Positions 11,826 to 34,310 of a stretch of DNA of 64,000 nt are shown piece by piece. The DNA is from Parcubacteria bacterium C7867-006 (lineage in GTDB: Bacteria; Patescibacteriota; Minisyncoccia; Phycocordibacterales; DATDWN01). A model generated the notes under the pieces. The model worked only from the letters and a program-made list of their open reading frames with translations. It did no database searches and was not told the DNA's origin. The position numbers were made by a program, and so were the translations under genes. The stretch is from positions 68,782 through 132,781 of the forward strand of contig LFCP01000004.1 in assembly GCA_001189155.1 (NCBI GenBank), in the 5' to 3' direction. Each line of letters opens with the position of its first letter. Positions within the stretch are counted from its first letter, which is position 1.

Positions 11826-13070
11826 TTAGTCAATAAAGGTAAAAGCCTTTCCTTTTTTACCAGCTCTTCCTGTTCTTCCTATACGATGGACATAATCCTC
11901 ATACGTAGCTGGAATATCAAAGTTAATAACATGAGAAACTCCGGAAATGTCTAAACCTCTAGCAGCGACATCAGTTGCAACCAGCACCTGAGCCTTATCA
12001 TCTTTGAAAGTTTTTAATGCTCTTTGTCTAGCCGACTGGTTTTTGTCACCGTGAATAGATTCTGCTTTGAAACCTCTACCTTGTAGTAATGTTGTTAGCT
12101 TTTCAACTCCATGTTTTGTTCTACCAAAAATCAAAACTTTACTGAAATCTGGTTGAATTAACATTGAATGTAGAACATCTAGTTTATTTTCACCTCGATT
12201 TACTCGCACAACATCCTGATCAACATTTTTTGATGTATCTTGTGTCTTTACTGAAATAGAAACTGGATTTTTTAAGAAATCCTTTATAAGCATTTCAATC
12301 TCTCTAGATAATGTAGCTGAGAAAAACAAAGTGTGTCTGTCTTTAGGCATCATAGCCATCATAAACTTCATATCGTTTATAAATCCCATATCAAGCATTC
12401 TGTCAGCCTCATCCAAAACAACTGTTTTGAAAAATGATAGATTTAAAACTTTTCGTTCAATCAAATCTTTAAGTCTGCCTGGCGTACCAATAACAAACTC
12501 ATTTCTATATCGAAGCTGTCTTATTTGTGAACCGATAGGTGCACCTCCAACACATGAGACAGAATACAGCCCCATACCTTTTATAAAACCTTTTAGTTCA
12601 TCCTCTATTTGAAGTGCTAGCTCTCTTGTTGGACACATTATAAGAATATTTTCTTTTGGATTTGAAAGTACTTTGTGAATAAGAGGAATAAGAAAAGCAG
12701 CAGTCTTTCCTGTTCCTGTGTTTGCGATACCAACAATGTCTTCGCCTTTTAATATATGAGGAATAGCCCGATCCTGAATCGGTGTTGGATCAACATAACC
12801 TTTTTCAATAATGTTTGCTTTCAATCTTTCATCTATCAAAAAATCAGCAAACTTATGCTCAGGCACAAACTGCTCCACAGTCTCTGTTATAACTGCTTTA
12901 TTAACGAATTTAGATGGATGAATACTAGTTGAGACCCCTCGGCCTCTACCACCTCCACTTCTGTTACCACCACGAACTGGAAATCTTCCTCGACTTCCAC
13001 TTGAGCGACCTGCAAACGCAGGCTTTTTAAAAGTCCGCGTAAGCGCACCTTTCTGTATTTTTGATTGCAT
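11826..13070 (-). CDS. DEAD-box ATP-dependent RNA helicase with N-terminal RGG-rich tail
   Basis: Q-motif PTPIQ, GTGKTAAF, DEAD, SAT, HRIGRTGRAG. Confidence 0.9.
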   Translation of the reverse strand: MQSKIQKGALTRTFKKPAFAGRSSGSRGRFPVRGGNRSGGGRGRGVSTSIHPSKFVNKAVITETVEQFVPEHKFADFLIDERLKANIIEKGYVDPTPIQDRAIPHILKGEDIVGIANTGTGKTAAFLIPLIHKVLSNPKENILIMCPTRELALQIEDELKGFIKGMGLYSVSCVGGAPIGSQIRQLRYRNEFVIGTPGRLKDLIERKVLNLSFFKTVVLDEADRMLDMGFINDMKFMMAMMPKDRHTLFFSATLSREIEMLIKDFLKNPVSISVKTQDTSKNVDQDVVRVNRGENKLDVLHSMLIQPDFSKVLIFGRTKHGVEKLTTLLQGRGFKAESIHGDKNQSARQRALKTFKDDKAQVLVATDVAARGLDISGVSHVINFDIPATYEDYVHRIGRTGRAGKKGKAFTFID

Positions 13071-17951: not shown

Positions 17952-18329
17952 CTATTTTTTCTCTTCTAAGTCCAAACAGACCGAGTTAAGACAGTACCTC
18001 ATTCCTGTATCAGTTGGTCCATCATTAAATACGTGACCCAAGTGTGATCCACATTTACTACAGACAACCTCTACTCTGTGCATACCCATAGTATCATCTG
18101 GGATCTCTTTTACTGCACCAGGAAGTGCCTGATCAAAAGAAGGCCAACCTGTTCCAGAATCAAACTTTGCCTCTGAAGAAAACAAGTCCTGCCCACAGAC
18201 TTTGCATTTGTACATTCCATCTCTGTCATCGTGTAAAAGTTTGCCGGAAAAAGGAGCTTCTGTGCCCTTTTCTCTCAAAACAGCATACTCCTCTGGTGTT
18301 AATTTTGCTTTTATTTCTTCTTCATTCAT
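17952..18329 (-). CDS. msrB: peptide methionine sulfoxide reductase B
   Basis: two CxxC zinc pairs, GWPSF, catalytic RVEVVCSKCGSHLGHVF. Confidence 0.9.
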   Translation of the reverse strand: MNEEEIKAKLTPEEYAVLREKGTEAPFSGKLLHDDRDGMYKCKVCGQDLFSSEAKFDSGTGWPSFDQALPGAVKEIPDDTMGMHRVEVVCSKCGSHLGHVFNDGPTDTGMRYCLNSVCLDLEEKK

Positions 18330-18877
18330 ATTTGTTGAGATTTATTTGATAACAGATTACCGAAATTTTTTACAACTTTTTCAAGTTTTGGGTTTATAAC
18401 TAGTTCACAATACGGTGCGTCTTTGTTTCTCTCATAATAATCCTTATGATAATTCTCTGCTACATAAAAAACATCGAGAGGAGCAACCTCTGTAACCACA
18501 GGTTTTCCATCCTTACTTGATTCATTGATTTCCTTTATAAAATCCTCAGCAGTTTGTTTTTGCTCAGGGGTTGTATAGAAAATAACTGAACGATATTGAG
18601 TTCCAACATCATTACCCTGCCTATTAACAGTTGTTGGATCGTGACTACCAAAAAATACTGTTAAAAGATCTCTATAGGTAATCTGACTAGGATCAAACTC
18701 TACTTGAGTACATTCTGCGTGTCCCGTTGTCCCACTACAAACCTGCTCATAAGTTGGATTTGGAACTGTTCCACCAGAATATCCAGGTAAAACAGAAGAA
18801 ACACCTTTTAGCATCTTGAAAACTGCTTCTGTGCACCAGAAACATCCACCTCCAAATACAGCGATTTCTTTTTTCAT
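18326..18877 (-). CDS. msrA: peptide methionine sulfoxide reductase A
   Basis: GGGCFWC active site; overlaps msrB by 4 nt (operon). Confidence 0.9.
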   Translation of the reverse strand: MKKEIAVFGGGCFWCTEAVFKMLKGVSSVLPGYSGGTVPNPTYEQVCSGTTGHAECTQVEFDPSQITYRDLLTVFFGSHDPTTVNRQGNDVGTQYRSVIFYTTPEQKQTAEDFIKEINESSKDGKPVVTEVAPLDVFYVAENYHKDYYERNKDAPYCELVINPKLEKVVKNFGNLLSNKSQQI

Positions 18878-18936: not shown

Positions 18937-19803
18937 TTATTTTAATACACCAATTTTAAATGATGCTAATTCTTTGGCTGGATTACCCTGACCTCCATGT
19001 TGAGCTGTGAATCCAGCTGTACCGTCTATTCCACACAAACCTATAATCGCAGATGCGCCACCAGGATGCTGTGATATCCATGAAGTTAGATTATAAACCC
19101 CACCACTTACGGCAGACCAACAATCAGAAGATTTATTGTGTAGTGCGACTTGAGCTAGGGTATATTTAGGAAGAGTTGTACTGGATGAATCAGAATTCGT
19201 TGTTCCAGCAGGAGTTGTTGTTACAGTAGTAGTATTAGAAACTCTTCTATCATCATCGTCGTCATCTTCAGATTCATTCTCGTCCTCATCGTCTGAATCC
19301 CTTCTAGAACTATCGCTACTTTTACTCACACTTGAACCCCCCTCTTTCTTAACAGAAGTAGTTGCAGTTTTATTGTCTTCACCATTATCATCACTATCAT
19401 CATCTTCCACTCCTAAAGTTCCAGCTATTTCAGAGTGATCTTTTATTTCTTTTTCTAACTTACCATTTATCTCATCTGCAGATTTTGAATCTCCTTTAGC
19501 TTTAATTTTTTGTACATTTTCATTTATTAAACTGACTTCTTTCAAAAAAGAGTCTTTTATTTCGATACTCTGCTCAGCTGACAACTTTCCTTTTTCTTTT
19601 AACTGCTCTGCTTCTACTAAGCGTCTAGCTGCTTGACGAACAGAAACTTCAGCATCACTTTTTGCTGTAAGAGCAATAGCAGACTCTATATTTTCATTTA
19701 TATGAATCTTTACTGAGTACAAAATATCTCCTGGAAGAGAATTCTCTGCAACTATTCCAGTTCCTCCTCCTAATAACAGTAGCAATATTAGTGCAATCGG
19801 CAT
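18937..19803 (-). CDS. secreted coiled-coil/acidic-linker protein with C-terminal cytochrome b5-like heme-binding domain
   Basis: signal/anchor MPIALILLLLLGGG; C-terminal YTLAQVALHNKSSDCWSAV...SQHPGG cyt-b5 signature; poly-D/E linker. Confidence 0.6.
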   Translation of the reverse strand: MPIALILLLLLGGGTGIVAENSLPGDILYSVKIHINENIESAIALTAKSDAEVSVRQAARRLVEAEQLKEKGKLSAEQSIEIKDSFLKEVSLINENVQKIKAKGDSKSADEINGKLEKEIKDHSEIAGTLGVEDDDSDDNGEDNKTATTSVKKEGGSSVSKSSDSSRRDSDDEDENESEDDDDDDRRVSNTTTVTTTPAGTTNSDSSSTTLPKYTLAQVALHNKSSDCWSAVSGGVYNLTSWISQHPGGASAIIGLCGIDGTAGFTAQHGGQGNPAKELASFKIGVLK

Positions 19804-20875: not shown

Positions 20876-23779
20876 TTATTGAGCGTTTGGATTCATTGAC
20901 CAAGGAATCAATTCTGGAAGTTGAGCCATCAACTCTGGACACTCAAGGTTATTTATCTTTGTAACTGTTGATAGATAAACTAGACCTGTTGCGCTTGTTA
21001 GTCCCCAAGGCTTTAGAACATCATCAGAATATTTTGTTTGGAAGTTTTTAACTACTCCGTATGTCATTGGTCCGTAGAAACCTGTGATAGGCAAACTTGT
21101 TCCCATATTTTTGTTCAAGAATTCTTGAAGTTTCTTAACCTGACTAGCATTGTTCTTTGAACTACCTAGTCTAAAGTGTGTATTCAAGTAAAGTCCGCAA
21201 GACTCACCTAGAACTTCACCTGCTGTAGTAGAAGCTCCCAAAACCTGACCTCCACCTCCTAGTGAACCTACAATAGGACCATTACCTCCACCTCCTCCAC
21301 TTGGTGGTGTTACTGGTGTAGGTGCTGGAATAAATGCAGCACAATCTGGGTCAGCTAGATCAACTAGTCTATCACCATCATTGTCTATACCATCAGTACA
21401 CAATGGCTGTGTGTTTTCTACTGGTTGTGCTGTAACAATAACTGTTCGTGTTGTACTAGTTGAAGCATCTTCACTGTCCATAGCTGTATAAGTAAGTGTG
21501 TATGTTCCTGGAGTTGATGTAGAAACTGTTCCAGTCACAACTATAGAGGAAGTAATATCTCCATCCTCTGGGTCTGTTGATGATGCACCTGGGTCAACAA
21601 ATGTATCACCTACTAGCAAGTTGATTGGGTTGTTTCCAAAAAGAGTAATGCTTGGTAAGTCGTTAACTGGTTTTATGTCAATAGAAACTGTTGCTGTACT
21701 ACTGTTTGTTACACCGTCGTTAGCAACAAATGTGAATGAATCAGAACCATTTTCGTTTGCATTAGGAGTATATGTAAATGCTCCTGTGTTTAAGTCAAAT
21801 GATGTAAGTGTTCCTTTTGTTGGGTTTGATGTTGTAGCAAATGTAAGTGTTTGTGCTGGAAGATCTACGTCAGTTGCAGTCATAGCTGTAGATGTTGCTG
21901 TATCCTCATCTGTTGAAACAGACAAGTCGTTTGCAACTGGTGCTTCATTTACTTCGTTAACTGTAACTTTAAAAGTTTTTGAATCCTGTAGAGCTCCATC
22001 AGTAACAGATGCTGTGAAGTTATAAACTCCAGGACCTTGGTCCTCTGCTGGTGTCCAATCAAATATTCCTGTTACAGAATCTAGTGTTACTCCAGATGGA
22101 ACTGAACCAACTAGAGAGTAAACTAAAGTATCAAGTGGACTATCTAGGTCATTAGCAGAAATAGTGAAGTTTAGATTACTCAATTCATTTACAACATAAT
22201 CAGAAATTACATTCAATATAGGTGCATTATCATTTACGTTTATAGTAACTGTTGCTGAACTAGTTAAAGTTCCGTCAGAAACCTCGTATGTGAATGAGTC
22301 TAGTCCTTGATAGTCAGTTGCTGGTGTATATGTGAACGATCCATCTGGATTCATTATTACACTAGCCCCAACAACTATTGGTTGAGTTAGAATAGAAAAT
22401 GTAAGTGTGTTTGGTAGAAGAGGAACCAAATCAGAGTCTGTAGCAACTACAGTGTCATTTACTGCTGTATTTTGGTGAGTTGATACTGTAAGAGACTGAG
22501 CAACTGGTGCAACATTTACTTCATTTACAACAACTGTTACTGCTTTTGTATCTGTTCCTCCATTTCCATCAGAAACTAATACATTAAAGTTATATGTTGC
22601 TGGGCCCTGATTCTCTGCTGGTGTCCAAGTAAATACTCCTGTAGAAGAATCTATACCGGCTCCTGTTGGTTCACCAGAAAGTGAGTATGTCATTACATCT
22701 CCAGAATCTACATCAGTAGCAGAAGCTGTAAATGATAGATTTGTAAGTTCATCTAGAGCCACAGATGTTGTTGTGCTTATAGAAAGTACTGGGTTATCAT
22801 TTACGGAGTTAACTGTAATAGAAACTGTAGCAGTATTACTATCTACTGTTCCATCATAAACTTTGAAGTTAAATGAATCAGAACCGTTGAAGTCTGCATT
22901 TGGAGTATATGTGAATGCACCTGTAGTTGAGTTGAAAGATGTTATTGTTCCGTTTGCTGGGTTTGAAGTTGTTGCGTATGTAAGAGAGTCTCCATCTATA
23001 TCAGAAGCTGCAAGGTTTGAAGAAACATCTGTATCTTCATTTATAGATATAGCAGTACTTGATGCAACTGGTGCATCGTTCTCTGGAGTAACAGTGATTG
23101 TTGTTGTTGCAACATTACTGTATCCAAGTCCATCAGAAACCTTGAATGAGAATGCGTCTCCTCCGTTATAGTTTAATGACGGAGTATATGTAACTTGATT
23201 ACCTGAAACAGAACCTAGAGTTCCGTGTGTAGGACCGTTTACAATGAAATATGTAAGAGGTTGTGCTGGAGTATCAGAATCTGTAGCTGTCATAGTCACA
23301 ACCTTTGCTGTATCTTCAGGTGTTGTTACTGAACTACCAGTTGCAGCAGGAGCTGTATTTGGAGGACAAGTTGGAACTATTTGAGTAGCATCAATCTGAT
23401 TATCTTTACCATTTGGTTTTGAGTGGTATACCATTACAGAAACAGTAGTTGTTGGAGTTGATGAATAGTGATGTGGTCCAGCTGAAAAAGTAAAACTGTA
23501 TGGTGAAGTTGTATCTCCTCCTAGGTCTAATGGAATATTTGTCTCTATGTCTCCCGTATTCCAAACAACCTGAACGTGATACTGGTCTATTTGACTACCA
23601 TTTGCTGGAGTTACAGTACCACTACCAGTTACTGTTAAATCAGTACCTAAACATGGATTTCCTGACGTAACAACAGAATCAATCGAAGCAGTTGGTTGAT
23701 CAGCTAATGCAACACTTGGGATGAGTGTGTATGGCACCGCCAAAACCAGAGTCAGAACTAACGAAGTTATTTTTTTCAT
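20876..23779 (-). CDS. large secreted adhesin-like protein: tandem cadherin-like/VCBS domains (VNDAPV, VNEAPVA, VNDNPV), DNDGD calcium motif, C-terminal peptidoglycan-binding domain
   Basis: signal peptide, >6 internally repeated about 95-aa modules, PG_binding_1-like C-terminus (LQEFLNK...GFYGPMTYGVVKNFQ). Confidence 0.7.
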   Translation of the reverse strand: MKKITSLVLTLVLAVPYTLIPSVALADQPTASIDSVVTSGNPCLGTDLTVTGSGTVTPANGSQIDQYHVQVVWNTGDIETNIPLDLGGDTTSPYSFTFSAGPHHYSSTPTTTVSVMVYHSKPNGKDNQIDATQIVPTCPPNTAPAATGSSVTTPEDTAKVVTMTATDSDTPAQPLTYFIVNGPTHGTLGSVSGNQVTYTPSLNYNGGDAFSFKVSDGLGYSNVATTTITVTPENDAPVASSTAISINEDTDVSSNLAASDIDGDSLTYATTSNPANGTITSFNSTTGAFTYTPNADFNGSDSFNFKVYDGTVDSNTATVSITVNSVNDNPVLSISTTTSVALDELTNLSFTASATDVDSGDVMTYSLSGEPTGAGIDSSTGVFTWTPAENQGPATYNFNVLVSDGNGGTDTKAVTVVVNEVNVAPVAQSLTVSTHQNTAVNDTVVATDSDLVPLLPNTLTFSILTQPIVVGASVIMNPDGSFTYTPATDYQGLDSFTYEVSDGTLTSSATVTINVNDNAPILNVISDYVVNELSNLNFTISANDLDSPLDTLVYSLVGSVPSGVTLDSVTGIFDWTPAEDQGPGVYNFTASVTDGALQDSKTFKVTVNEVNEAPVANDLSVSTDEDTATSTAMTATDVDLPAQTLTFATTSNPTKGTLTSFDLNTGAFTYTPNANENGSDSFTFVANDGVTNSSTATVSIDIKPVNDLPSITLFGNNPINLLVGDTFVDPGASSTDPEDGDITSSIVVTGTVSTSTPGTYTLTYTAMDSEDASTSTTRTVIVTAQPVENTQPLCTDGIDNDGDRLVDLADPDCAAFIPAPTPVTPPSGGGGGNGPIVGSLGGGGQVLGASTTAGEVLGESCGLYLNTHFRLGSSKNNASQVKKLQEFLNKNMGTSLPITGFYGPMTYGVVKNFQTKYSDDVLKPWGLTSATGLVYLSTVTKINNLECPELMAQLPELIPWSMNPNAQ

Positions 23780-24126: not shown

Positions 24127-25245
24127 TTAAATTTTTGCGTAAATATCAACAGTTAAATTCCCTGTATTGTTTGGATAGTAAACATCATAAACTTGGAAGG
24201 AAACTGGTGAACCTAAACCCGCAAACTCATATGAATATGAGTGTAATGAACTATATCCTCCCCAATTTACTGAACCTCCGTTTACTTTTAGATCAAGTAG
24301 TTGATCGGTGTATGACTCATATGTAGAGACTGCATCAGTCCAATCTACACTTGAACCAGTTCGGAAACTATAATCAGCATCAAATGCTATACCATCCCCA
24401 GCATTTGCTGTACCAGATGCCTTCAAAACATAGTTGTGTCCTACTAGAAAAGAGTTAGATGAAGAAACAGGACTTGCCCCATTTGCTGGAACTGTAACTG
24501 TCTCTAAATAATACATTCCATCTAAAACTCCATCCGCAAGGTCTTTATGGAAGTCCTCTAGAACACTTGAGCTCAAACCATACTTTAGATGACCGTTCAT
24601 AACACTACCAAAAGTACTGTTTAACATCTCAAGAATCTGATGCCCATTACATCCATATGTGTAATCAATAGTATTCACACTAGCTGTCGGAGTTTTAATT
24701 CCTTTTTTTACTTTATTTTGCCACCAAACCCCATCTTGAACCTGCCACCTATTTGCACCCCAAGACTCATCCCAAGAAATATCTGACCCAGTCAAAGGAC
24801 AAAAATCTTGTCCGTCAGTTACACCGTCATGATCAGTATCTTTAATGGCCTTGTGGCCATCCAAACTCCACTGCCATGGAACTGTCCCGCTGATTGTTCC
24901 ATCTGAATCAATAGTTCCAGTCATATCAAACGTTGAACCTTGAGCATATGGTCCATTATAGACAACATGGAAAGAAATATTGCTTCCATCCACGACCCCA
25001 GTAACAGTTTCTGTTGTCTGTCCTACTTGATCATATGGAGCTCCACCTGCTGGGTAACCAGCATGTCCAGAAAATGACCCATTAGCATCTTGAACATCAA
25101 TCACGAAATCATGAAAGTATGTTCCAAAAACATTCCAAACATATGTTCCTCTAACATCCCAATCTGTACCAACTGCATGAGTACTTATTGGAGCCATGAA
25201 CATAACCAAAGAAAGAATTGTTAAAACAGAAAATAGTTTTTTCAT
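24127..25245 (-). CDS. secreted protein with thrombospondin type-3-like calcium-binding repeat
   Basis: signal peptide; DTDHDGVTDGQD TSP3-like motif. Confidence 0.5.
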   Translation of the reverse strand: MKKLFSVLTILSLVMFMAPISTHAVGTDWDVRGTYVWNVFGTYFHDFVIDVQDANGSFSGHAGYPAGGAPYDQVGQTTETVTGVVDGSNISFHVVYNGPYAQGSTFDMTGTIDSDGTISGTVPWQWSLDGHKAIKDTDHDGVTDGQDFCPLTGSDISWDESWGANRWQVQDGVWWQNKVKKGIKTPTASVNTIDYTYGCNGHQILEMLNSTFGSVMNGHLKYGLSSSVLEDFHKDLADGVLDGMYYLETVTVPANGASPVSSSNSFLVGHNYVLKASGTANAGDGIAFDADYSFRTGSSVDWTDAVSTYESYTDQLLDLKVNGGSVNWGGYSSLHSYSYEFAGLGSPVSFQVYDVYYPNNTGNLTVDIYAKI

Positions 25246-25419: not shown

Positions 25420-26751
25420 TTACAGGCCAGCTGTAGTTAAGAATGAACTTTCAGTAGATGATGCTGTGTTGTTAGCTGCATCAGATGAAACTACTACATA
25501 GTAATATGTTGTAGAAGTTGCAAGTCCTGAAAGAGATAAAGTGTGACTTGTAACTAAAGATGAGTTATTTACCATTTGAGTATTAGCAGAAGTTAAGCTT
25601 AATGGTGTTGATGTTCCAAACCAAACTTTACTTGTTGCTGCCTCGTTTGTTGTCCAAACAATGTTTGTTGTTGTACCAAATAGATTTGATGTTCCTACTG
25701 ATGTTATAACAGGTGCTGTTGTATCTGGCGCAGCTGTCACAACTACAGAAGCTCCGGCATCAGTACATTTTGTACTAACTGACTTGTTTTTACTATCACC
25801 ACTATATGTTGCAATAAATCTGTAAGTTCCTGTTGATGTGGCAGTAAAGTTTCCTGATACATAATTACCATTACCATTTACTGTTGCACTAGCAGGTGCT
25901 GGAGTCAGAGGCATAGTACATGATGAATCATAAGGAGCGTAAACCTGGAATGATATTGTTCCTGTTGGAGCATTACCAAATGATAGTGTGGCTGTATCTT
26001 TTATTGTTCCCCCGACAACAACAGAATCTGACGCTGTGTTTGATATAACTGGTGTTGTTGATGAGTTTCCATTGTTATTCCAACCATCATTATCTCTTTT
26101 ATCATCTATTCCCTTTGGAAGAGTCTGACATTCTGGAACAATAGGTCTCTCACCATTATTTTTCTTTAACCACCCTGGTGCAATCAAATGTCCTGGAGGA
26201 ACTTTTACACAAAGTTTTTTCTCACCTCTCTCTTTTTCATCACCATTTCTTCTAAAATCTGTAGTAACTGATGTACTAGTTGAACTACTACTTTCATTTG
26301 ATAATCCTAGTTCATTCATATGCTCACTCAATTTTTTCAGAGTTTTTGGGCCCACAAAACCAACTGTCTCAAGACCAAACTTTTTCTGATATTTTTTCAG
26401 AGCCTGATTAGTAAGAGGTCCAAAATATCCAGTTATACCACCTGAATATATAGTTGGATCTGCTGCTAGGATGGCCTGTAGGGCTTTAACATCATCTCCA
26501 CTCATACCCTGTCTTAGATTTCTCATCGCAACCAAAGTTGTTGAGATATTTGCTGATGTAGAAGCAACCTGTGTCTGAGCAGCTCTAAGAGCTTGAATCT
26601 GTGCCTGTAATGTTTGAATTTGCTGTAACATACTAGCTACTGCAGCACTTTGTGTACTAGTAGTAGAAGTATCCGCAAAACCGACTGCCGGCATAACCAT
26701 AGCACTTGCCATAGCCAATCCAGCTATTCCTAAAAGTAATTTTTGTTTCAT
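25420..26751 (-). CDS. secreted protein: coiled coil, peptidoglycan-binding domain, C-terminal FN3/Ig-like domain
   Basis: signal peptide; PG_binding_1 (DDVKALQAILAADP...GYFGPLTNQALKKYQ); FN3-like C-terminus. Confidence 0.6.
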   Translation of the reverse strand: MKQKLLLGIAGLAMASAMVMPAVGFADTSTTSTQSAAVASMLQQIQTLQAQIQALRAAQTQVASTSANISTTLVAMRNLRQGMSGDDVKALQAILAADPTIYSGGITGYFGPLTNQALKKYQKKFGLETVGFVGPKTLKKLSEHMNELGLSNESSSSTSTSVTTDFRRNGDEKERGEKKLCVKVPPGHLIAPGWLKKNNGERPIVPECQTLPKGIDDKRDNDGWNNNGNSSTTPVISNTASDSVVVGGTIKDTATLSFGNAPTGTISFQVYAPYDSSCTMPLTPAPASATVNGNGNYVSGNFTATSTGTYRFIATYSGDSKNKSVSTKCTDAGASVVVTAAPDTTAPVITSVGTSNLFGTTTNIVWTTNEAATSKVWFGTSTPLSLTSANTQMVNNSSLVTSHTLSLSGLATSTTYYYVVVSSDAANNTASSTESSFLTTAGL

Positions 26752-26864
26752 AATTAATTAAATTCTATTTAATACCTAATTAAATAATAAAAACTGTCTC
26801 GCACGGTACTGTAGACGATTATACCATCTATTCATTACAAAGTTTTACATCTTATTAACAGTAT

Positions 26865-26902
26865 AAAAAACAACCTCGCGGACTCCCGAAGGAGCCGCGA
26901 GG
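26865..26902 (-). terminator. GC hairpin CCTCGCGGCTCC-ttcg-GGAGTCCGCGAGG plus T6 (on minus strand)
   Basis: 12-bp stem with one bulge, 4-nt loop, T-run. Confidence 0.55.
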
Positions 26903-26919
26903 CGTTGAGACGAGTGAAA

Positions 26920-27516
26920 CTAGAACACGTCGCCCGAGGTCCCCTCCGAAGAGTTGACCCAATTGTCGCTGATACCGTGGTACACCCACCCCCAGAATTC
27001 GTATGAGTAGGTGTTGACCGTGAAGTACGTAGTGAGCCAGGAAGCGTAACCGGGACAGTTGCCATTGATGTCGCAGGCGTAGTCCACGATGCCGATGTTA
27101 CCCTTGGTCTTCCAGGCCGGCGCCGGGTTGAGAACTCCGTCGATGATGAGCACGTACCCGCCCTCGAACGTTCCGTCTTCCTCACCGGTAAGGGGTCCGT
27201 TGTTGCCGGGGCTGGTCTGCCCAGCCTGGGCGTCGAACTGGCCGGAGTTCCGAACCACCGCGCAGTACTTGCCGTCGGGCTGAGCCCACACCTGGATCGT
27301 ACGGTTGAGATCGTCGAAGGCCCAGTTGTTGCCGGCGAGACCGGAATCCACGTCATGGATGACCTTACCCGTAACGTTGATGACCGGGGGGCCAACACGC
27401 TGGCAGGTGCCAGCGTTGACCTGGGTACCCCAGTTGAGGTTCTCGCGAGGATCAGCATTCGCATGGGAGACGACCCCCAGGACACTGGCCAGGACAGCGC
27501 ACCAAATAAACTTCAT
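26920..27516 (-). CDS. GC-rich secreted Trp/Gly/Asn-rich protein of unknown function (198 aa)
   Basis: about 58% GC; signal peptide MKFIWCAVLASVLGVVSHANA; AAGGAG SD; own terminator; overlapping alternative-frame ORF 26835..27485 is Arg/Pro-rich junk. Confidence 0.5.
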   Translation of the reverse strand: MKFIWCAVLASVLGVVSHANADPRENLNWGTQVNAGTCQRVGPPVINVTGKVIHDVDSGLAGNNWAFDDLNRTIQVWAQPDGKYCAVVRNSGQFDAQAGQTSPGNNGPLTGEEDGTFEGGYVLIIDGVLNPAPAWKTKGNIGIVDYACDINGNCPGYASWLTTYFTVNTYSYEFWGWVYHGISDNWVNSSEGTSGDVF

Positions 27517-27656
27517 TCTTCAAGCTCCTTGGAACAAAAGCGACTGGATGCCGCTTACCAAGGGTAAACTTAACAAAACTAGACACTAAAGTCAATATTT
27601 AGTCAACAAAAAATCCCCTTTCGGAGTTTTTTGTGTTCAATCTATTTTTTTTATAA

Positions 27657-28316
27657 TTATTTAACAAAAATGTGAACAACCCACCCAAACAAACTTAGTT
27701 TATTTTCATTTGCCTCAACAAAGGCCTGAGTGCTACTTGAAATACCTTCAAGGGCTTTTATCTGCGCTTGTAAATCTGCCTTTACACTTACACTAGCTGT
27801 TTTCTGTTCTGCTTTCTTTAGTCTTTCTATATGGTTCTGTGTTGTTACAATAGTACTTCGCAACTCTCCTATATTTCTATAATTAGGACCCAAAAGGAAA
27901 ACTTTTAATTTACTCTCTGAGTTCAGCTCATCAATATCTGTTTTTACTTTAGCGCTTGTTGATGCTTGCTCTTGTGCTACAAGTCTAACTTCTGCACCTA
28001 TTCCTCCATCTCTGTTGGCTACCATAAGAAGGTTTTTGACAACAGTAGAAACAGCACTTCTGTGCTCATCTCCTAAATTTTCATTATCTTCTCTTTTATC
28101 TGATGATGTTGCAGATGAATTATCATCTCCATCATCATTTCTCTCACCGCTCTCCATTTTCACTGTTCCAGTTGCACTAGCAGAAGTTTTTGATCCAACC
28201 TCAACTTCTGCTTTAGTATTAACACCAACGCTTAAAGCTGAAACTTTAACTCCAAAAACCAATAAAAACACTGATAATGCTGATAATAAATAAAATCTTT
28301 TTGTATTATTTTTCAT
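27657..28316 (-). CDS. secreted/anchored coiled-coil protein
   Basis: N-terminal signal anchor, helical repeats, acidic patch. Confidence 0.4.
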   Translation of the reverse strand: MKNNTKRFYLLSALSVFLLVFGVKVSALSVGVNTKAEVEVGSKTSASATGTVKMESGERNDDGDDNSSATSSDKREDNENLGDEHRSAVSTVVKNLLMVANRDGGIGAEVRLVAQEQASTSAKVKTDIDELNSESKLKVFLLGPNYRNIGELRSTIVTTQNHIERLKKAEQKTASVSVKADLQAQIKALEGISSSTQAFVEANENKLSLFGWVVHIFVK

Positions 28317-28386
28317 ACTCTAATTAAGACGAATAATGATAAATATTCTTTCAATATCAATTATACAATAATATTAACAAAATGCT

Positions 28387-29826
28387 CTACACAAACCCCG
28401 GGAAGAAATCTGTCTTTATGTTTGAACTCTTAACTCCCATTTTAGCAAGCGTTGATTCAAAGGCTGTTATCATTCCATGTGGGCCTGATATATAAAACAT
28501 TCTATCAGCAAAATCTGGAACATTATCTCTTATCATTTTTTCATCCACAAAACCTATTTTCATATCATCCTCAATAACAGTGCCAGCCAAATCATTAACA
28601 GCATATATCGTTTTCAATCCATAAACTTTAGCTTGATCAAATATATCTTTATAAACAATATCAGTTGGAGTTCTGTTTGAGAAAAATAAAACAATGTCTC
28701 TATTCTGACCAAAATCTAAAAGATTTTTTACCATACTTCTGAAAGGTGTAATTCCAATGCCTCCAGCGATGAAAACCAGTTTTTTATTTTTATCTTCAGG
28801 TAAAATAAACTCACCAGATAGTTGTGAAGCAATTATTTTGTCTCCAGCATTTAAAGAACCGAGTTTTTTCTTAAAAGAGCTAGAATTATTATAAAACTTT
28901 ACTCCTAGTTTTAGATTTTCCTCTGTGGGAGAAGAAGCAATAGTAAAATACCGCCTATTTCCTCTTTGATCTGGATTTTTGTGACCCAAAGTCCATTCCA
29001 GATACTGTCCAGATTTAAAATTAAATTTTTGATCAAGCTTCCATTCAAACTCATAAACATCTTTTGTTAAAGCTCTCTTCTGAATAAGAGTCAAAACCAA
29101 TCTAGCTCTCGGAGAAACTATATAAGAGAAAATATTTCCAATGACTAGAGCTAAACCTGGAGTTGAATATAGAATGCCGAACTCAAACTGAGCACCGAAC
29201 ATAAACCCTGTTATGACTGCATACATAATCTGCAGTTTTTTCGTTGGTGGAGTTGTCAGTGGTTCAGTTAGCATTATAGAACCGAAAAACAATATAGGCC
29301 CAGATATAAAAGTTATTTTTAAAATCTCTACTATATCTGAAATGGAAGAAAAGTTGAATATCAAAATACTAACAAGACTCGCCAAAACAAAAGCAAAAAA
29401 CATTTGGAATCTTTTTAGTTTTCTCAAAACAAGAAAACCTAGTATTGAAACAGGAACAACCATAGAGCTAGTCGCTACCCACCATGATGCAATACCGCTA
29501 CCAAACAGACCTATCAAAAAAATAGACACTGCTACAGGATTAAATATATGTTTTTTATCTATTGTCAGGAGGTATTTTGACGCCATGTAACTAGATATCC
29601 ATACAGACTCAACGTTTGTTTGAACTTTAAACAAGGATGAAAATAATTGATTTGTAACAAAACAAACAGCAAATAAAACAAGTAAAGTAGAAATCAGAGA
29701 TACCCCACTGTACGGTAGCACTCCAAAAAATCCGAGAACTATTGCTACTAAAGATAAAATAGTAAGTCCGTACAAAACTATTTTGTACATAGTTATTCCA
29801 TTTAGAAAATTATCTATATATTTCAT
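28387..29826 (-). CDS. polytopic membrane protein fused to C-terminal FNR-like FAD- and NAD(P)-binding oxidoreductase domain
   Basis: N-terminal 6 or more TM domain (no His pairs, so not a heme ferric-reductase domain); RRYFTIASSP (RxY[ST]), AGGIGITPF, ISGPHGM motifs. Confidence 0.7.
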   Translation of the reverse strand: MKYIDNFLNGITMYKIVLYGLTILSLVAIVLGFFGVLPYSGVSLISTLLVLFAVCFVTNQLFSSLFKVQTNVESVWISSYMASKYLLTIDKKHIFNPVAVSIFLIGLFGSGIASWWVATSSMVVPVSILGFLVLRKLKRFQMFFAFVLASLVSILIFNFSSISDIVEILKITFISGPILFFGSIMLTEPLTTPPTKKLQIMYAVITGFMFGAQFEFGILYSTPGLALVIGNIFSYIVSPRARLVLTLIQKRALTKDVYEFEWKLDQKFNFKSGQYLEWTLGHKNPDQRGNRRYFTIASSPTEENLKLGVKFYNNSSSFKKKLGSLNAGDKIIASQLSGEFILPEDKNKKLVFIAGGIGITPFRSMVKNLLDFGQNRDIVLFFSNRTPTDIVYKDIFDQAKVYGLKTIYAVNDLAGTVIEDDMKIGFVDEKMIRDNVPDFADRMFYISGPHGMITAFESTLAKMGVKSSNIKTDFFPGFV

Positions 29827-29841
29827 ATTTGTATAATACCA

Positions 29842-30714
29842 TTATGAAGTAAATATTTCCGCATTAAAACCTACAGACTTTTTCATAGAATAGTCAGAAT
29901 AAATTATCAAATACTGAAAATCAAAATGTTTTGCCAGAGTTTCTGGAGTTACAAAAAATAAACCTGTAGTGAGAATATCAGCTAGTATAGTTGTGTCAGC
30001 CAAAGTCCAAACCGCCAAAATATCTTTTGGAGAAGATAGAGTCTCTGGACTTATGACATGGTGAAAGTTCCTCCACTTACGACGATTACCCGCTGAGCCA
30101 CACAAACTCTGGTTCAAAATATCAATAGTACCTATTACCATAGTGCTATCATCCGGATGTTCTAACCCTACCTTTAATTTTTCGCCAGTAACATTTTTCT
30201 GTCTCATATCTCCACCAGCATCTACACAGTATGACTGAACACCTTCCCCCTCAATTATCTCTGAAACAATATCAACCAAATATCCTTTTCCGCCAGCACC
30301 AAAATCAAGGACTACTGGTTCTGATAATGTTAATTTTGGACTCTCCCATTTTATAACCTCATCCCAAGTTTTTGGTTTTGTTAGGTGTTTAGGAGATAAA
30401 GAATAATTTGCATCATATCCAGCGTCTACCAAAACTTGGCCAATAAGTGGAGTCACTAAACCAGAAGTCACATCATACATTTTTTTATAAAGCATCATCA
30501 TCAGATCGGCGTCTTCTGACAGTTCAAACTCACCAGACTCTTTAGACATTTTTGTCACCAAAGAATCCTCTCTAAAACGGGAGTAGTCCAGATCAAACTT
30601 CACTATCCTGTCATTTATTTTTTGAAGCAAAACAACCTCTCTTTCTTTTGAGAGGTTGTTTTGTATATCTATCTGCCAGTGTGTTCCGATAGCTTCAAAT
30701 TCAAACTTTGTCAT
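29842..30714 (-). CDS. apbE: FAD:protein FMN transferase (ApbE family)
   Basis: DFGAGGKGYLVD and C-terminal ADTTILADILTTGLF ApbE motifs; no obvious signal peptide. Confidence 0.8.
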   Translation of the reverse strand: MTKFEFEAIGTHWQIDIQNNLSKEREVVLLQKINDRIVKFDLDYSRFREDSLVTKMSKESGEFELSEDADLMMMLYKKMYDVTSGLVTPLIGQVLVDAGYDANYSLSPKHLTKPKTWDEVIKWESPKLTLSEPVVLDFGAGGKGYLVDIVSEIIEGEGVQSYCVDAGGDMRQKNVTGEKLKVGLEHPDDSTMVIGTIDILNQSLCGSAGNRRKWRNFHHVISPETLSSPKDILAVWTLADTTILADILTTGLFFVTPETLAKHFDFQYLIIYSDYSMKKSVGFNAEIFTS

Positions 30715-30721
30715 GTAAAAG

Positions 30722-31195
30722 TTAGGCTTTGGCTTGTGCTTCGATTTGATTTAGTGCATCCATAAATCCTTTTGGAGTTAGAGATGAACCAGAAACTTTA
30801 GTAAGAGCAATATCATCTACCTTTTTACCAACAACCTGAGCATTAACTCCAGAAATAAACTTAGCCTGCCACTCCTTTGACTCCTTTCTTGTTGCTTGTG
30901 ATATTACATTTGCACTAGTTACAACATCATCTTTCAAAGTTAGAGTAACTGCGATACTTTCTGAACCTCCTGGAGAAATATATGAACCAGTAGCTGAATA
31001 TGATCCGTCTTTATATAGTAAAGTTGGAGTTTGTACTGTTGGAACAGTTCCAGTTGTATCTTGAACAACAGGAGTTCCGACTACTGACTCAGTAGTTCCC
31101 TTCATATATTTATAACCTCCAAACGCACCTAGAGCTATCACAACAACTGCAACAGTCCATAAAATTGCACCGCTTCCTTTCTTTTGTTCTTCCAT
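30722..31195 (-). CDS. membrane-anchored FMN-binding domain protein (NqrC/RnfG-like), probable ApbE substrate
   Basis: N-in TM anchor; FMN_bind fold features; candidate flavinylation motif VSGSSLT near C-terminus. Confidence 0.65.
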   Translation of the reverse strand: MEEQKKGSGAILWTVAVVVIALGAFGGYKYMKGTTESVVGTPVVQDTTGTVPTVQTPTLLYKDGSYSATGSYISPGGSESIAVTLTLKDDVVTSANVISQATRKESKEWQAKFISGVNAQVVGKKVDDIALTKVSGSSLTPKGFMDALNQIEAQAKA

Positions 31196-31246
31196 TTATT
31201 TTTAATTAAAGTTAATCAGAAAATATTATATCTATTTATTTTGTTT

Positions 31247-31600
31247 TTATCTACCACCCATTTTCCCCCCTCTAAAACCTTTGTGTAGATTTGTTGTATC
31301 AATACCGTGTTCCTGCATTATTTGTTTCATTGTTTTTCCAGATTTAAGTTCTTGTCTAATTTCTTCGCGAGTCAAACCCAGTCCACCTGCAAGAGCATTA
31401 ACCCCTTTTGGTGTATTCCATTTTCGCATCATATGCATACCAGTATCACCAGCATTCTGATAATAACCTGGCAAACTCAAGTCTGCTGTTTCAGCAAGAG
31501 CGACATTGCTTGTGCCCATCAGTATCATTCCGGCCACAATTCCAGAGCTAGCTCCGGCAATAATGGCCTTTGTCATTCTTTTGTATCTTTTATCTTTCAT
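31247..31600 (-). CDS. small secreted protein
   Basis: signal peptide; Gly/Met-rich; same operon orientation as flavinylation genes. Confidence 0.35.
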   Translation of the reverse strand: MKDKRYKRMTKAIIAGASSGIVAGMILMGTSNVALAETADLSLPGYYQNAGDTGMHMMRKWNTPKGVNALAGGLGLTREEIRQELKSGKTMKQIMQEHGIDTTNLHKGFRGGKMGGR

Positions 31601-31702
31601 ATTTTTATTTATATTATTACCGTTAACTATCTGTTAAATACTTACACTATTAGATACAAAACATATTTTATTTTATTTCACAAAAATACAAATGGAACAA
31701 TT

Positions 31703-32434
31703 TTATTGCTCATTAGTCAATTTACGCATACCATATGCCCTTATTCCATCAGACATTTTATCTCCCGCTATGAAAATTTGATCTCCCGGATTAAGTGATA
31801 ATGAGTAAACATCCGTGTTACCTGGAACAAAAACCTCTATAGTCATATCGTCTGCATCAGAATCATAGTCGTTATACTTCATATAAAAAGTACTAGTCCC
31901 CTCAATAGAGATTATCTCTCCACGGAATATACCTTGATTACCATGAGATTTCCTCAGTCCCATATAAAACCCACCAGCTATTGGTAAGTTTTTTTGTTCA
32001 GCTCTGTAAAGTAGACCCTTATGGAAAGAAGTGAAATTTATAAGAGAACCGAGTAAAGTTATAGAAGCCAGAGTCCCGATGAAGAGGAAAAGAACTGGGC
32101 TGTTGTATCCAAATCTAAAACTTTTAAGTAGCCAGTCTAGAAAAATGATGAGAGCAATATCAATTCCCAAAATAACCCACGGCAAAGCCATAATAAAATG
32201 ATAAAAACCTTTTGCGCCAAAACCAAGTAGGAAAAATTGGCCACTAACTTTTATACTGAATAAAACATAACTAACTATGATTGAAGATAGAATGAAAGTC
32301 AGGAATATAGTCACACCCAAAAGTGCGAGCTTTAGCATAAAATAATACTTTGGCTTCATATTAACCTCACCTGAATTTATTTTATTCAGAATTTGATCTT
32401 TTATGTTATTTATTTGTGTATTTTCTGTATTCAT
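31703..32434 (-). CDS. putative anti-sigma factor (polytopic membrane protein with extracytoplasmic C-terminal domain)
   Basis: 4-nt overlap with upstream ECF sigma gene; 4 TM segments. Confidence 0.4.
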   Translation of the reverse strand: MNTENTQINNIKDQILNKINSGEVNMKPKYYFMLKLALLGVTIFLTFILSSIIVSYVLFSIKVSGQFFLLGFGAKGFYHFIMALPWVILGIDIALIIFLDWLLKSFRFGYNSPVLFLFIGTLASITLLGSLINFTSFHKGLLYRAEQKNLPIAGGFYMGLRKSHGNQGIFRGEIISIEGTSTFYMKYNDYDSDADDMTIEVFVPGNTDVYSLSLNPGDQIFIAGDKMSDGIRAYGMRKLTNEQ

Positions 32435-33027
32435 ATTTTTGGTATTTCTATATTTGTTTTCTCCATCGCATCTCTTAAAATCTCTTTGGCCCTCATTATT
32501 CTCACACCCACCGTCCCTATAGGAATATGCAAAATATCGGAGATTTCCTTATAACTCAACTCTTCAATAAAATACAAAACTAAAATCTCTCGGTATTTAG
32601 GCTCAATCAAAGATAATCCTTTATCAACAACGTCTTTCATTTCTCTTTGTTCTTTCTCTCTAACAATAGGATCATCAACTACTGTATGAGAAACAAGAGC
32701 GTCAAAATCAAAAAGGTACATAGGACCTACTGAGCTCTTTTTTATGGCATTAACATAAGTATTGTGAGCAATACGATAAATCCAAGGAGAAAACCTTTGG
32801 TTTACATCAAAACTGTTTATGTTTTGATATGTTTTTATAAAAACATCCTGGACAACATCCTCAATATTGTCACTGTCGTACAAAAACTTTTTACCATATC
32901 TAAAAAGCTTCGCTTGATAACGCTCCATAAGAACACCGAATTTATCCGTATCTCCCTTTTGGACGAGTCCGGCTAATTCTTCATCAGAAAGACTCTCAGT
33001 ATTACTGTTCATTTGTATACTATACAC
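32431..33027 (-). CDS. ECF-type sigma-70 family RNA polymerase sigma factor
   Basis: region 2 (DVVQDVFIKTY) and region 4 HTH (LSYKEISDILHIPIGTVGVRIMRAKEILR). Confidence 0.8.
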   Translation of the reverse strand: MYSIQMNSNTESLSDEELAGLVQKGDTDKFGVLMERYQAKLFRYGKKFLYDSDNIEDVVQDVFIKTYQNINSFDVNQRFSPWIYRIAHNTYVNAIKKSSVGPMYLFDFDALVSHTVVDDPIVREKEQREMKDVVDKGLSLIEPKYREILVLYFIEELSYKEISDILHIPIGTVGVRIMRAKEILRDAMEKTNIEIPKI

Positions 33028-33052
33028 CTAATACAATCGGGGAGGAAAAATA

Positions 33053-33529
33053 TTACTTCGCTTTTTCTATGTGAAATTTGATGCGATATTCAGACTGTTC
33101 TGTTGGTTTTTTACTGTACAAGGGAGGGTTTATCTCAACAATGGATATTTTATAGCCAGCGAACTCCTGTGGAACTTCATCTGAAGGCATATTTTTTGTA
33201 ACTGCTTCTTTTCCATACACAAAAGTTACATTTGTATTTATTGCCCCCGCCTGGATACATTGCACATCAACTGGACAACGATAGTCGTTTGGAACTGAAT
33301 TCAAAGTTATCTTGAATTCTCCCAGACTTTTTGTTTGACCAACAGACAGAACAACATCTCCAATACTTGGGATGCTAACTTCAGACTCTGGAGTCGTCCT
33401 TTTAAACTCCATTAATTTTTCATATTGAACTCCAAAGCAAAAAGCCAACCAAAATGTCGAAACAAAAACAATAATCGCTATTAATTTTGAGTACCAAGTA
33501 ACTCTATTCCATTCTATATTCATATTCAT
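33053..33529 (-). CDS. hypothetical membrane-anchored protein
   Basis: single N-terminal TM, ORF only. Confidence 0.35.
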   Translation of the reverse strand: MNMNIEWNRVTWYSKLIAIIVFVSTFWLAFCFGVQYEKLMEFKRTTPESEVSIPSIGDVVLSVGQTKSLGEFKITLNSVPNDYRCPVDVQCIQAGAINTNVTFVYGKEAVTKNMPSDEVPQEFAGYKISIVEINPPLYSKKPTEQSEYRIKFHIEKAK

Positions 33530-33559
33530 ATTTTAACACGAACTTGTTACAATGTAAGT

Positions 33560-33991
33560 ATGTCAAATGATAACCCAATAATAAAAGATGTTTTTTGGAG
33601 ATATATTACTAACCTTTGGTGTCTTCTATCATATGCTGCAATTATTATAGACTTTATATATGATCATATACTTGGAGAAATCCTTCCATCTATTCTAGTA
33701 ATCTATGTTGCTCTACTTGTTATTTTTGCCGGAGTAAAAGAGTTTGAGAGATGGTATGAATTTAGAAGGGATAGACATCCAGGTGAATGGTTCGTAATAG
33801 GATGGACTATATTGGTTATAGGCATAATGGTAGCTACAGTTGTTATGCATAAGGAATACCACATTCCAGAAGAGGTTCTTGCAACTTATATTGCAGTATT
33901 ATCTATTATGGCAATCACTCAAAAATCAAAAAGACTTAAGGTTGAAAGAGATATTCATCAACACGAGTTAGAACTCAAACATCACGACTAA
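33560..33991 (+). CDS. hypothetical membrane protein (3 TM)
   Basis: ORF with hydrophobic segments. Confidence 0.35.
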   Translation: MSNDNPIIKDVFWRYITNLWCLLSYAAIIIDFIYDHILGEILPSILVIYVALLVIFAGVKEFERWYEFRRDRHPGEWFVIGWTILVIGIMVATVVMHKEYHIPEEVLATYIAVLSIMAITQKSKRLKVERDIHQHELELKHHD

Positions 33992-34046
33992 AATTGATTG
34001 TTAAGCATTATCGTGTTTGATACTATTTATATAGAGGAGGTTGGAG

Positions 34047-34310
34047 ATGAATGGGACCACGTCTGAATTGTACGGAGACTCCCAGTTGATCTACCTCGGC
34101 GAAAATCTCGTGAGGATGTTCAGGGGCGGCCGACACGTAGAGATTGGAGAGAGGAGAATTCTCGCGACCAGCCACAGACAAGTTGAGGTCGTCAAGATCA
34201 AGAAGCCTCAGAACCCATATGACGAGCATGAACCAATCGTCGAGGTGGAGTGCACTCTACCTAGTGGCGACAAGATTAGAAGTCTCATCAGATTTGATGA
34301 GTTGAGGTGA
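34047..34310 (+). CDS. GC-rich small soluble protein (87 aa) of unknown function
   Basis: about 55% GC island; strong SD GAGGAGG 6 nt before ATG at 34047; followed by hairpin AGGGGGT...ACCCCTCT plus T-run. Confidence 0.4.
   Translation: MNGTTSELYGDSQLIYLGENLVRMFRGGRHVEIGERRILATSHRQVEVVKIKKPQNPYDEHEPIVEVECTLPSGDKIRSLIRFDELR

Follow-up and report, generated by a model that had tools for sequence, protein, structure and literature searches.

Six ORFs on the minus strand of a 64-kb stretch of DNA (the window) from Parcubacteria bacterium C7867-006 probably encode an NQR/RNF-like two-subunit electron-transfer module together with a dedicated flavin transferase, under the control of an ECF-sigma-dependent promoter (Table 1). 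CPR/Patescibacteria are thought to be fermentative, without respiratory chains and nearly devoid of extracytosolic flavinylation. Nonetheless, the module family is widespread among them and ranks among the few candidates for a route that moves reducing power across the membrane. New here are the link to an ECF promoter, the family-wide absence of an export signal in ApbE, the two ApbE/motif subtypes and the loss of the TM3-TM4 hairpin from the reductase. The ORFs lie where a sequence-only reading of the same DNA had placed them. ORF coordinates confirm the gene order proposed there (sigma factor, polytopic protein, small protein, FMN_bind protein, ApbE, reductase), and Pfam confirms the domain identities (Sigma70_r2/r4_2, ApbE, NAD_binding_1 and FAD_binding_6; FMN_bind at the family level).

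Table 1. Features of the operon, with positions in the window.
Feature	Position	Strand	Basis or description
ECF-type sigma factor, maximal ORF	32431..33027	-	Sigma70_r2 and r4_2 matches
Anti-sigma candidate, 243-aa membrane protein	31703..32434	-	Short N-terminal helix, three long TM helices, C-terminal OB-fold domain
SigW-like ECF promoter motif TGAAAT-N16-TGTAT	31654..31680	-	Upstream of small-fmnb-apbE-reductase
Small protein, 117 aa, predicted secreted	31247..31600	-	N-terminal features
NqrC/RnfG-like membrane-anchored FMN_bind protein, predicted ApbE substrate	30722..31195	-	One TM helix; family-level PF04205
Predicted flavinylation motif S135-G-S-S138	30782..30793	-	Aligned to family consensus D-x-V-S-G-A-T
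ApbE-family FAD:protein FMN transferase, "type A", ~290 aa	29842..30714	-	PF02424, 1e-32 (114 bits)
NqrB/RnfD-like membrane domain fused to NqrF-like FAD/NAD(P)H (FNR) domain	28387..29826	-	Pfam and profile searches
Junction of 75-nt in-frame deletion, between Tyr80 and Met81 of the reductase	29584..29589	-	Homologue alignment

The reductase matches the Pfam families NAD_binding_1 (1.6e-16) and, just above the cut-off, FAD_binding_6 (2.4e-4), and its N-terminus gives a sub-threshold match to NQR2_RnfD_RnfE. With a profile of the whole protein, solely FNR-family structures appeared among the best 60 PDB matches listed; a separate N-terminal profile was needed, which aligns to just the last four helices of RnfD. 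An NqrB/RnfD-like N-terminal domain and an NqrF-like C-terminal domain are what defines the NQR/RNF-like class, which was reported for 127 genomes in 2021 (Meheust et al., 2021 eLife, PMC8238504) and has already been noted in CPR bacteria (PMC8238504, PMC11334425). Therefore, the membrane reductase is not of a different kind, as the sequence-only reading had it, and the Firmicutes EET systems to which the locus had been likened are not the closest comparison. The core proteins agree with the published definition of a PF03116-like and PF00175 fusion inside a flavinylation cluster, for which ApbE and/or FMN_bind must lie no more than five genes away and at least one must have an export signal: ApbE and the FMN_bind protein are encoded directly upstream of the reductase, and export was judged from the N-terminal TM anchor of the FMN_bind protein. 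Judged by domain composition, the operon is a member of this already described class. It shares with the published systems the NqrB/RnfD-like domain fused to the NqrF-like PF00175 domain, the adjoining NqrC/RnfG-like FMN_bind protein and ApbE, and a membrane domain that has no flavinylation Thr, in agreement with Huang et al. (2024 mSystems, PMC11334425); the motif [ST]G[AS][ST] occurs in this domain in 0 of 90 family sequences. It differs from them in its own ECF-type promoter with an adjacent sigma/partner pair, in its place in the type-A ApbE/SGSS subclade and in the missing TM3-TM4 hairpin. The word "sigma" is absent from the text of PMC8238504 and PMC11334425, and neither discusses a family-wide missing ApbE export signal.

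Only one His (H93) and one Cys are conserved in the membrane domain. Therefore, it has no bis-His haem site, which bears out the earlier statement that ferric-reductase-type haem ligands are lacking. A haem domain of the FRD/NOX type is ruled out by the same single His, and NOX structures match via the dehydrogenase domain alone. Across the family, K/R number 1.5-3.7 per cytoplasmic loop and 0-0.7 per external loop, and this excess places the FNR domain inside.

The NqrB/RnfD, NqrC/RnfG and NqrF FAD/NAD folds as well as the ApbE-dependent flavinylation predicted here are also found in Na+-NQR and RNF (PDB 7xk3, 8ahx, 7zc6). In contrast to these, the cluster comes without the NqrA/D/E or RnfA/B/C/E partners, the NqrF-like part has no 2Fe-2S domain, and the NqrB-like part has no covalent FMN site. 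Neither NqrA/D/E/F nor RnfA/B/C/E subunits were found as separate proteins of the operon or as recurrent neighbors in the 80 loci surveyed. Electron flow is presumably one-way rather than along the semicircular path that drives ion pumping in Na+-NQR/RNF. Listeria-type EET (Ndh2/EetA/EetB/PplA/FmnB) has in common with the module a tethered FMN_bind protein, the predicted flavinylation by an ApbE-family enzyme and a monoderm-type envelope, whereas its entry point is Ndh2 with quinone and EetAB instead of an NqrB-like/FNR fusion; none of the six operon genes encodes Ndh2, EetA, EetB or a quinone biosynthesis enzyme. In GTDB species genomes, at least 593 relatives were confirmed when the first 600 candidate stretches were checked, and the order fmnb-apbE-reductase is kept in ~65 of 80 loci.

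The FMN_bind protein of the window scores below the PF04205 cut-off (E 0.002, 19.1 bits against 22 bits). However, the family assignment is solid at the profile level, because 13 of 16 relatives match PF04205 (best 1.7e-11) and the family profile matches the solved flavinylated domain 8p2a (1.2e-20) with SGAT aligned. The single TM helix comprises residues 9-27. The N-terminus of the window copy is ambiguous in charge, with two K/R before and two after the helix; most of its homologs begin with an "MKK + hydrophobic" anchor that leads into P/T/S-rich linkers, with an excess of acidic residues behind the TM helix. The sequence-only reading had proposed VSGSSLT as the flavinylation site. The motif region holds, but the target should be Ser138, as predicted by alignment to SGAT, rather than the Thr. 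Compared with D-x-x-[ST]-G-A-[ST], the window motif T-K-V-S-G-S-S keeps the S-G core and the terminal Ser but has Ser in place of Ala and no Asp. The SGSS variant is fixed in its subclade and goes along with type-A ApbE in 10/10 loci. Two ApbE/target-motif subtypes co-vary, of which the window has the rarer one; this suggests enzyme-substrate specificity, which could serve orthogonal flavin tagging. The N-terminus of the small protein, encoded upstream of fmnb, combines a charged and a hydrophobic stretch with an ALA-E sequence that resembles a cleavage site. A Pfam search with it gave no match, and among the loci surveyed it is restricted to the closest relatives L001-L003 and L081.

The assignment of ApbE stands, with the GKGY, H-V-I-S-P and A-D-I-L motifs kept in alignments to the E. 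coli and V. cholerae structures (4xgw, 2o18, 6nxi). In the alignment, residue 2 falls on position 16 of the mature E. coli protein, and the start lies 8-9 residues ahead of the conserved core. Since the ATG follows the FMN_bind stop after only 7 nt, there is no room for an N-terminal extension. Neither a signal peptide nor a lipobox is present in the window copy, as noticed before, or in any of 64/64 cluster-linked homologs from several phyla. This conflicts with a substrate that looks exported: judged by topology, a signal-less enzyme and an outward-facing FMN_bind protein form a puzzle, and the signal-less cognate ApbE raises the concrete question of where flavinylation occurs. In Listeria, FmnB is extracytosolic (PMC9973259), whereas the ApbE described here has no lipoprotein signal. 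The ApbE of the Klebsiella pneumoniae fumarate reductase is likewise cytoplasmic and has no signal peptide. However, its substrate is soluble and cytoplasmic, while here an N-terminal membrane anchor and linker would point outward.

The sigma gene matches Sigma70_r2 (5e-16) and r4_2 (7e-14), has no region 3 and scores 98 bits against TIGR02937 (sigma70-ECF; cut-off 42.9 bits). Among NCBIfam models, SigW matches best (4e-37) but does not reach the equivalog cut-off. The small size of 193-198 aa and the presence of regions 2 and 4 alone make the protein, by domain content, an ECF (group 4) sigma factor. The ATG at 33012 (193 aa) is a more likely start than the GTG at 33027, and the ortholog in L081 has 193 aa. 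The sigma gene overlaps that of its partner by 4 nt. Of the proposed polytopic anti-sigma factor, the membrane protein beside the sigma factor is there, with a cytoplasmic N-terminus that is a single helix of ~28 aa; a ZAS/RsiW/RskA-type or other known anti-sigma domain was not recognized in it. Regions 2 and 4, the SigW match and a co-translated membrane partner are shared with the SigW-type regulons of B. subtilis, which differ in that the partner here has no ZAS or RsiW-type anti-sigma domain and the genes form a redox module instead of serving detoxification or membrane remodelling. Sigma genes on the same strand lie within 5 kb in 18 cases across 80 loci. At 5-10 kb there are none on the same and two on the opposite strand. 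However, 61/80 loci have no sigma gene nearby, with a two-component system instead in 16, which counts against sigma control as a general feature. Based on the same-strand genes within 5 kb, we regard the linkage of the sigma gene to the module as real, as the sequence-only reading had claimed, and the promoter motif adds cis-element evidence.

This motif was recovered only by alignment of close relatives. TGAAAT-N16-TGTAT matches exactly once in the window, in the gap that separates the small gene from the anti-sigma candidate, and is found at the same position in L002, L003 and L081. Since L003 carries it also upstream of the sigma gene, exact matches amount to five among 81 loci. The spacer is kept in length among close relatives and varies in sequence. 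Read as a -35/-10 pair, TGAAAT-N16-TGTA resembles TGAAAC-N16-CGTA of the SigW-type regulons and the ECF consensus of B. subtilis (tgaAAC/CGTA). When the motif is relaxed, 10 copies lie upstream of fmnb or the small gene (~0.6 expected), whereas matches with one mismatch in the window are at chance level (6 vs. 3.9 +/- 2.1). When the regions upstream of sigma were searched without bias for bipartite k-mers, nine divergent loci had none in common (best pair 3/9). Scans of 27400-34100 for sigma-70 promoters (22 sites, 25.7 in shuffled sequence) and terminators (4 and 3.3) were set aside.

We infer the direction of electron flow, the cofactor content and the anti-sigma function as follows. NAD(P)H would reduce FAD on the cytoplasmic NqrF-like domain, and the electrons would cross the membrane by way of the NqrB/RnfD-like domain, which lacks a covalent flavin site and probably holds a non-covalent flavin. 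Next in line would be the FMN put by ApbE on Ser138 of the NqrC-like protein, which is anchored in the membrane and would face outward, and then a putative extracytoplasmic acceptor. The suggestion in the sequence-only reading that reducing equivalents are dumped onto a host is speculative. The sigma factor would be kept in check by its co-translated membrane protein until an envelope signal allows it to turn on the module from the TGAAAT-N16-TGTAT promoter; promoter and sigma/partner pair thereby offer a handle on the time of expression. More speculatively, the FMN_bind protein could be flavinylated by cytoplasmic ApbE before or during its insertion, or ApbE could exit by an unknown route, and a subset of Patescibacteria would possess an NAD(P)H-to-outside outlet under a dedicated ECF sigma factor with a hitherto unrecognized OB-fold membrane partner as an envelope- or redox-stress response. 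We put this forward tentatively; if true, an extracytoplasmic covalent flavoprotein would be made without FAD export.

The absence of an ApbE export signal in 64/64 cluster homologs across several phyla would also fit a system that faces the cytoplasm entirely, with an N-out/C-in FMN_bind protein flavinylated by cytoplasmic ApbE and an electron relay on the inner face, without any extracytoplasmic outlet. Cytoplasmic ApbEs with cytoplasmic substrates are documented by the Klebsiella case, and the ambiguous charges around the TM helix of the window copy would allow such an orientation. However, this arrangement is improbable, given the classic N-in anchors with long linkers of the surface-tether type in most homologs and the acidic residues behind their helix. 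Moreover, NqrC and RnfG are extracytoplasmic, and a published AF-multimer model has the domain docked to the outer side. A somewhat better, though still minor, chance is given to the idea that the module has become inactive or is in decay both here and in the nearest relative, so that the operon would be a recent relic, because the reductase has lost a transmembrane hairpin. The window copy is the only one of 90 aligned sequences that has lost these 25 aa (75 nt, in frame), which 89/89 homologs keep. The deletion maps exactly to TM3-loop-TM4, whose near-invariant I, L and P residues are lost with it, and relatives have a complete 10-TM membrane domain, which the window copy has not. The junction shows a microhomology of 2 nt only, and the AF2 model has low confidence in the flanking region (pLDDT 50-70). 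In the closest relative L081, codon 4 of apbE is an in-frame TAA, and a transposase of the IS110 family sits between apbE and the reductase gene; the short ApbE as a gene-calling artefact was rejected, since this TAA is real. One transmembrane hairpin short, the module may be impaired in this genome, and the deletion cautions against taking it as working here. Both the deletion and the sub-threshold NQR2_RnfD_RnfE match had been overlooked in the sequence-only reading.

Least probable of all is an assimilatory reductase for ferric iron or another metal. Such a role has been suggested for the NQR/RNF-like clusters beside VIT1 iron transporters, of which six were noted (Meheust et al., 2021, PMC8238504), and in seven loci a CopA-like P-type ATPase is encoded in the vicinity; one such gene is in the window. 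However, an iron transporter is absent among the recurrent neighbors of the 80 loci and from the window operon, and the CopA-like gene of the window is ~18 kb away on the opposite strand. The survey of the 80 loci revealed no conserved acceptor gene among the neighbors; genes for MacAB-like ABC transporters, two-component systems, MsrA/B, CopA-like ATPases, G6PD, 2-hydroxyacid dehydrogenase and DUF5666 each accompany the module in at most 19/80 loci. The CopA-like gene of the window is located at 51366-53660.

The window reductase joins an NqrB/RnfD-like membrane domain to an NqrF-like FAD/NAD(P)H (FNR) domain, and its gene adjoins those for an NqrC-like FMN_bind protein and for ApbE. Meheust et al. 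(2021; PMC8238504) defined this arrangement as the NQR/RNF-like system, of which Huang et al. (2024; PMC11334425) presented an AlphaFold-multimer model. Neither paper contains experiments on the system, and the window module is a further member of this known class, itself experimentally uncharacterised, to which we add regulatory evidence, a family-wide signal-less ApbE, co-varying subtypes and a deletion. According to Huang et al. (2024) the flavinylation Thr is absent from the NqrB-like domain, which is directly confirmed here, since none of 90 family members carries a [ST]G[AS][ST] motif in the reductase membrane domain; the conserved residues of this domain include a single His and a single Cys. 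Relatives were sought in one genome per GTDB species, giving at least 600 candidate stretches with at least 593 confirmed, and 80 loci were fetched, mostly from Patescibacteria and some from Chloroflexota and Actinomycetota. Iterative HMM searches of six-frame ORFs revealed ApbE in 68 and FMN_bind in 73 of these 80 loci, in which the gene order fmnb-apbE-reductase is nearly constant with overlapping or abutting genes.

The six minus-strand ORFs of the module (see table) lie exactly where the sequence-only reading had placed them. NCBI proteins that are 100% identical to those encoded here assign the window to Parcubacteria bacterium C7867-006. The sigma gene overlaps that of its partner by 4 nt, followed by spacers of 102 nt to the small gene, 51 nt to the FMN_bind gene, 7 nt to apbE and 15 nt to the reductase gene. 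The sigma factor had been claimed to be of the ECF type, and Pfam and NCBIfam indeed give regions 2 and 4 with SigW as the best match; likewise, the proposed ApbE is matched by Pfam (1e-32), and the FNR-like C-terminus of the 479-aa reductase by FAD_binding_6/NAD_binding_1 (Pfam, NCBIfam). The window FMN_bind protein scores 19.1 bits, below the Pfam cut-off of 22 bits. Since 13 of 16 relatives match PF04205 and the family profile matches 8p2a, a solved flavinylated FMN-binding domain, with 1.2e-20 and an aligned SGAT site, the assignment can be regarded as secure at the family level. Ahead of the sigma gene, with a spacer of 25 nt, is a gene for a membrane-anchored protein of 158 aa that has no Pfam match; the operon may start with it. 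Homologues precede sigma in the closest relative (L081) and in locus L002, and in L021 one is found close to the module.

Features of the window and their coordinates
Feature	Position	Strand	Remarks
MsrB	17952-18329	-	without export signal
MsrA	18326-18877	-	PMSR 2e-65; without export signal
DUF5667 + cytochrome-b5-like secreted protein	18937-19803	-	signal peptide; DUF5667 2.5e-8; Cyt-b5 4.8e-16
Run of secreted or surface protein genes	20876-23779, 24127-25245, 25420-26751, 27657-28316	-	
Big_9/cadherin-like/PG_binding_1 protein	20876-23779	-	967 aa
PG_binding_1, coiled-coil or acidic proteins	24127-25245, 25420-26751, 27657-28316	-	
Secreted protein	26920-27516	-	198 aa; no Pfam match
Reductase	28387-29826	-	
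ApbE	29842-30714	-	
FMN_bind protein	30722-31195	-	
Small gene	31247-31600	-	
Exact promoter motif	31654-31680	-	
Candidate anti-sigma	31703-32434	-	243 aa
ECF sigma factor	32431-33027	-	
Conserved stretch before sigma ATG	33014-33040	-	
Membrane-anchored protein	33053-33529	-	158 aa
CopA-like heavy-metal P-type ATPase	51366-53660	+	70% identity to an ATPase encoded close to the module in locus L016

Sigma genes are strongly enriched beside the module: 18 same-strand genes were found within 5 kb (696 kb surveyed), but at a distance of 5-10 kb none on the same strand and two on the opposite strand (511 kb surveyed). The 243-aa partner of the window sigma factor belongs to a family of 42 proteins that have no Pfam match and share their contigs with reductase homologues; the family is under strong purifying selection (dN/dS 0.06). 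In the model of the partner, three long TM helices lie between a short helix at the N-terminus and an OB fold at the C-terminus. No recognisable anti-sigma domain was found in it, and therefore its anti-sigma role is proposed from gene context, which makes it a candidate anti-sigma. The observation of the sequence-only reading is confirmed, and its interpretation is borne out in part. Regulators differ in other loci. In L025, L027, L034, L016 and L078, DUF5667-domain proteins of 256-409 aa (in L025 and L027 described as membrane proteins) are encoded between ECF sigma and fmnb, ~1.3 kb upstream of the reductase, which suggests that sigma partners of another, unrelated type can serve this module. 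Two-component systems are located near the module in 16 of 80 loci, and either an ECF sigma or a two-component system in 31 of the 80.

Alignment of the anti-sigma-to-small-gene spacer of the window, L081, L002 and L003 revealed the common motif TGAAAT-N16-TGTA(T/G)(C/T), with a spacer of fixed length and variable sequence, which resembles the tgaAAC and CGTA of the Bacillus subtilis sigma-W consensus. The 64-kb window has a single exact copy of the motif and 81 loci have only five in all, the other sites being ahead of the small gene in L002, L003 and L081 and ahead of the sigma gene in L003. In 10 loci, compared to ~0.6 expected, a relaxed motif precedes fmnb or the small gene by no more than 150 nt, often carrying the extended -35 element GAAATAAA. 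Just before the sigma ATG lies another conserved stretch, GATTGTATTAGGTGTATAGTATACAAATG, which L081 and L002 share at this position; it includes the palindrome TGTATA-G-TATACA and might serve as an operator or belong to an autoregulatory promoter. In L062 an anti-sigma-like gene (11585-12364) downstream of the reductase is preceded by a GAAAC-N16-CGTA motif (11518-11542); no sigma gene is present in the available L062 DNA.

Family-averaged hydropathy gives ten TM segments for the reductase. The predicted cytoplasmic loops have 1.5-3.7 K/R each and the predicted external ones 0-0.7, which places the two termini and the FNR domain on the cytoplasmic side, as in NqrB/RnfD. Homologues of the FMN_bind protein start with MKK and a hydrophobic helix, continue with long Pro/Thr/Ser-rich linkers and are enriched in acidic residues past the helix, which argues for an outward-facing, tethered domain; the charges around the helix of the window copy are ambiguous. 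ApbE was noted to lack a signal peptide, which is correct for the window and holds for 64 of 64 full-length cluster-linked ApbEs (CPR, Chloroflexota, Actinomycetota), all starting ~8 residues ahead of the conserved core. The alignment of the window ApbE with mature E. coli ApbE begins at residues 2 and 16, respectively, and its motifs for catalysis and FAD binding are kept. Cytoplasmic ApbEs are already known, but with cytoplasmic substrates. The combination of a signal-less ApbE with a seemingly exported target is addressed neither by Meheust et al. (2021) nor by Huang et al. (2024). The FMN might be attached before the protein is exported; alternatively, ApbE might itself leave the cytoplasm along a non-classical pathway, or the FMN_bind domain might face inward.

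Enzyme and target co-vary. ApbEs of type A, including that of the window, have ~290 aa and a FEAIGT start and pair only with the variant target [D/S/T]-K-[V/I]-S-G-[S/A]-S-L (10/10 loci, two of which each show a single deviation at the S-G core), whereas those of type B (~250 aa, MGMP start) pair with the canonical motif, the last residues of which are G-A-[T/S]. By alignment, Ser138 is the predicted flavinylation target in the window.

No consistently linked electron-acceptor gene emerged from the survey of neighbours in 80 loci. In 9-10 of 81 loci the module has MsrA/MsrB in its vicinity, mostly within the type-A subclade of the window itself (L001-L003, L081); those of the window are encoded on the strand of the reductase gene, ~9.5 kb downstream of it. 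Directly upstream of them is the DUF5667/cytochrome-b5-like gene, whose product has an acidic linker and a C-terminal haem-binding domain with HPGG and QHGG His motifs and could be a candidate for an extracytoplasmic redox partner; of the other loci, only L081 and L037 have the Cyt-b5 domain. Such a haem-type domain would not be expected of a Parcubacteria genome. These neighbours and the ECF control hint at a role of the module in envelope or oxidative stress. CopA-like P-type ATPases are encoded close to the module in 7 of the 80 loci. Genes for secreted or surface proteins form a run downstream of the module, and in L081 a giant PA14/PG_binding_1 protein takes the equivalent place. At 26000-28000 the GC content rises locally to 0.44 compared to 0.32-0.36 in the flanks, coinciding with the 198-aa secreted protein and with a long ORF that overlaps it on the same strand in a different frame; this DNA is possibly foreign.

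With 479 instead of ~504 aa, the window reductase is missing 25 residues that are present in all 89 aligned homologues. The loss comprises exactly the TM3-loop-TM4 hairpin, so that the orientation of the remaining protein is preserved; the model is uncertain around the junction, where the microhomology is only 2 nt. With a dN/dS of 0.08 to the closest relative (dS saturated) the gene has been constrained for most of its history, and therefore the deletion is either recent or tolerated, or an assembly error. L081 has lesions of its own: TAA replaces Phe4 of its apbE (M-V-K-*-E-F-E-A-I-G-T; L081 4252-4266), and an IS110-family transposase (Transposase_20, weak match) is inserted between apbE and the reductase gene (L081 6431-7720).
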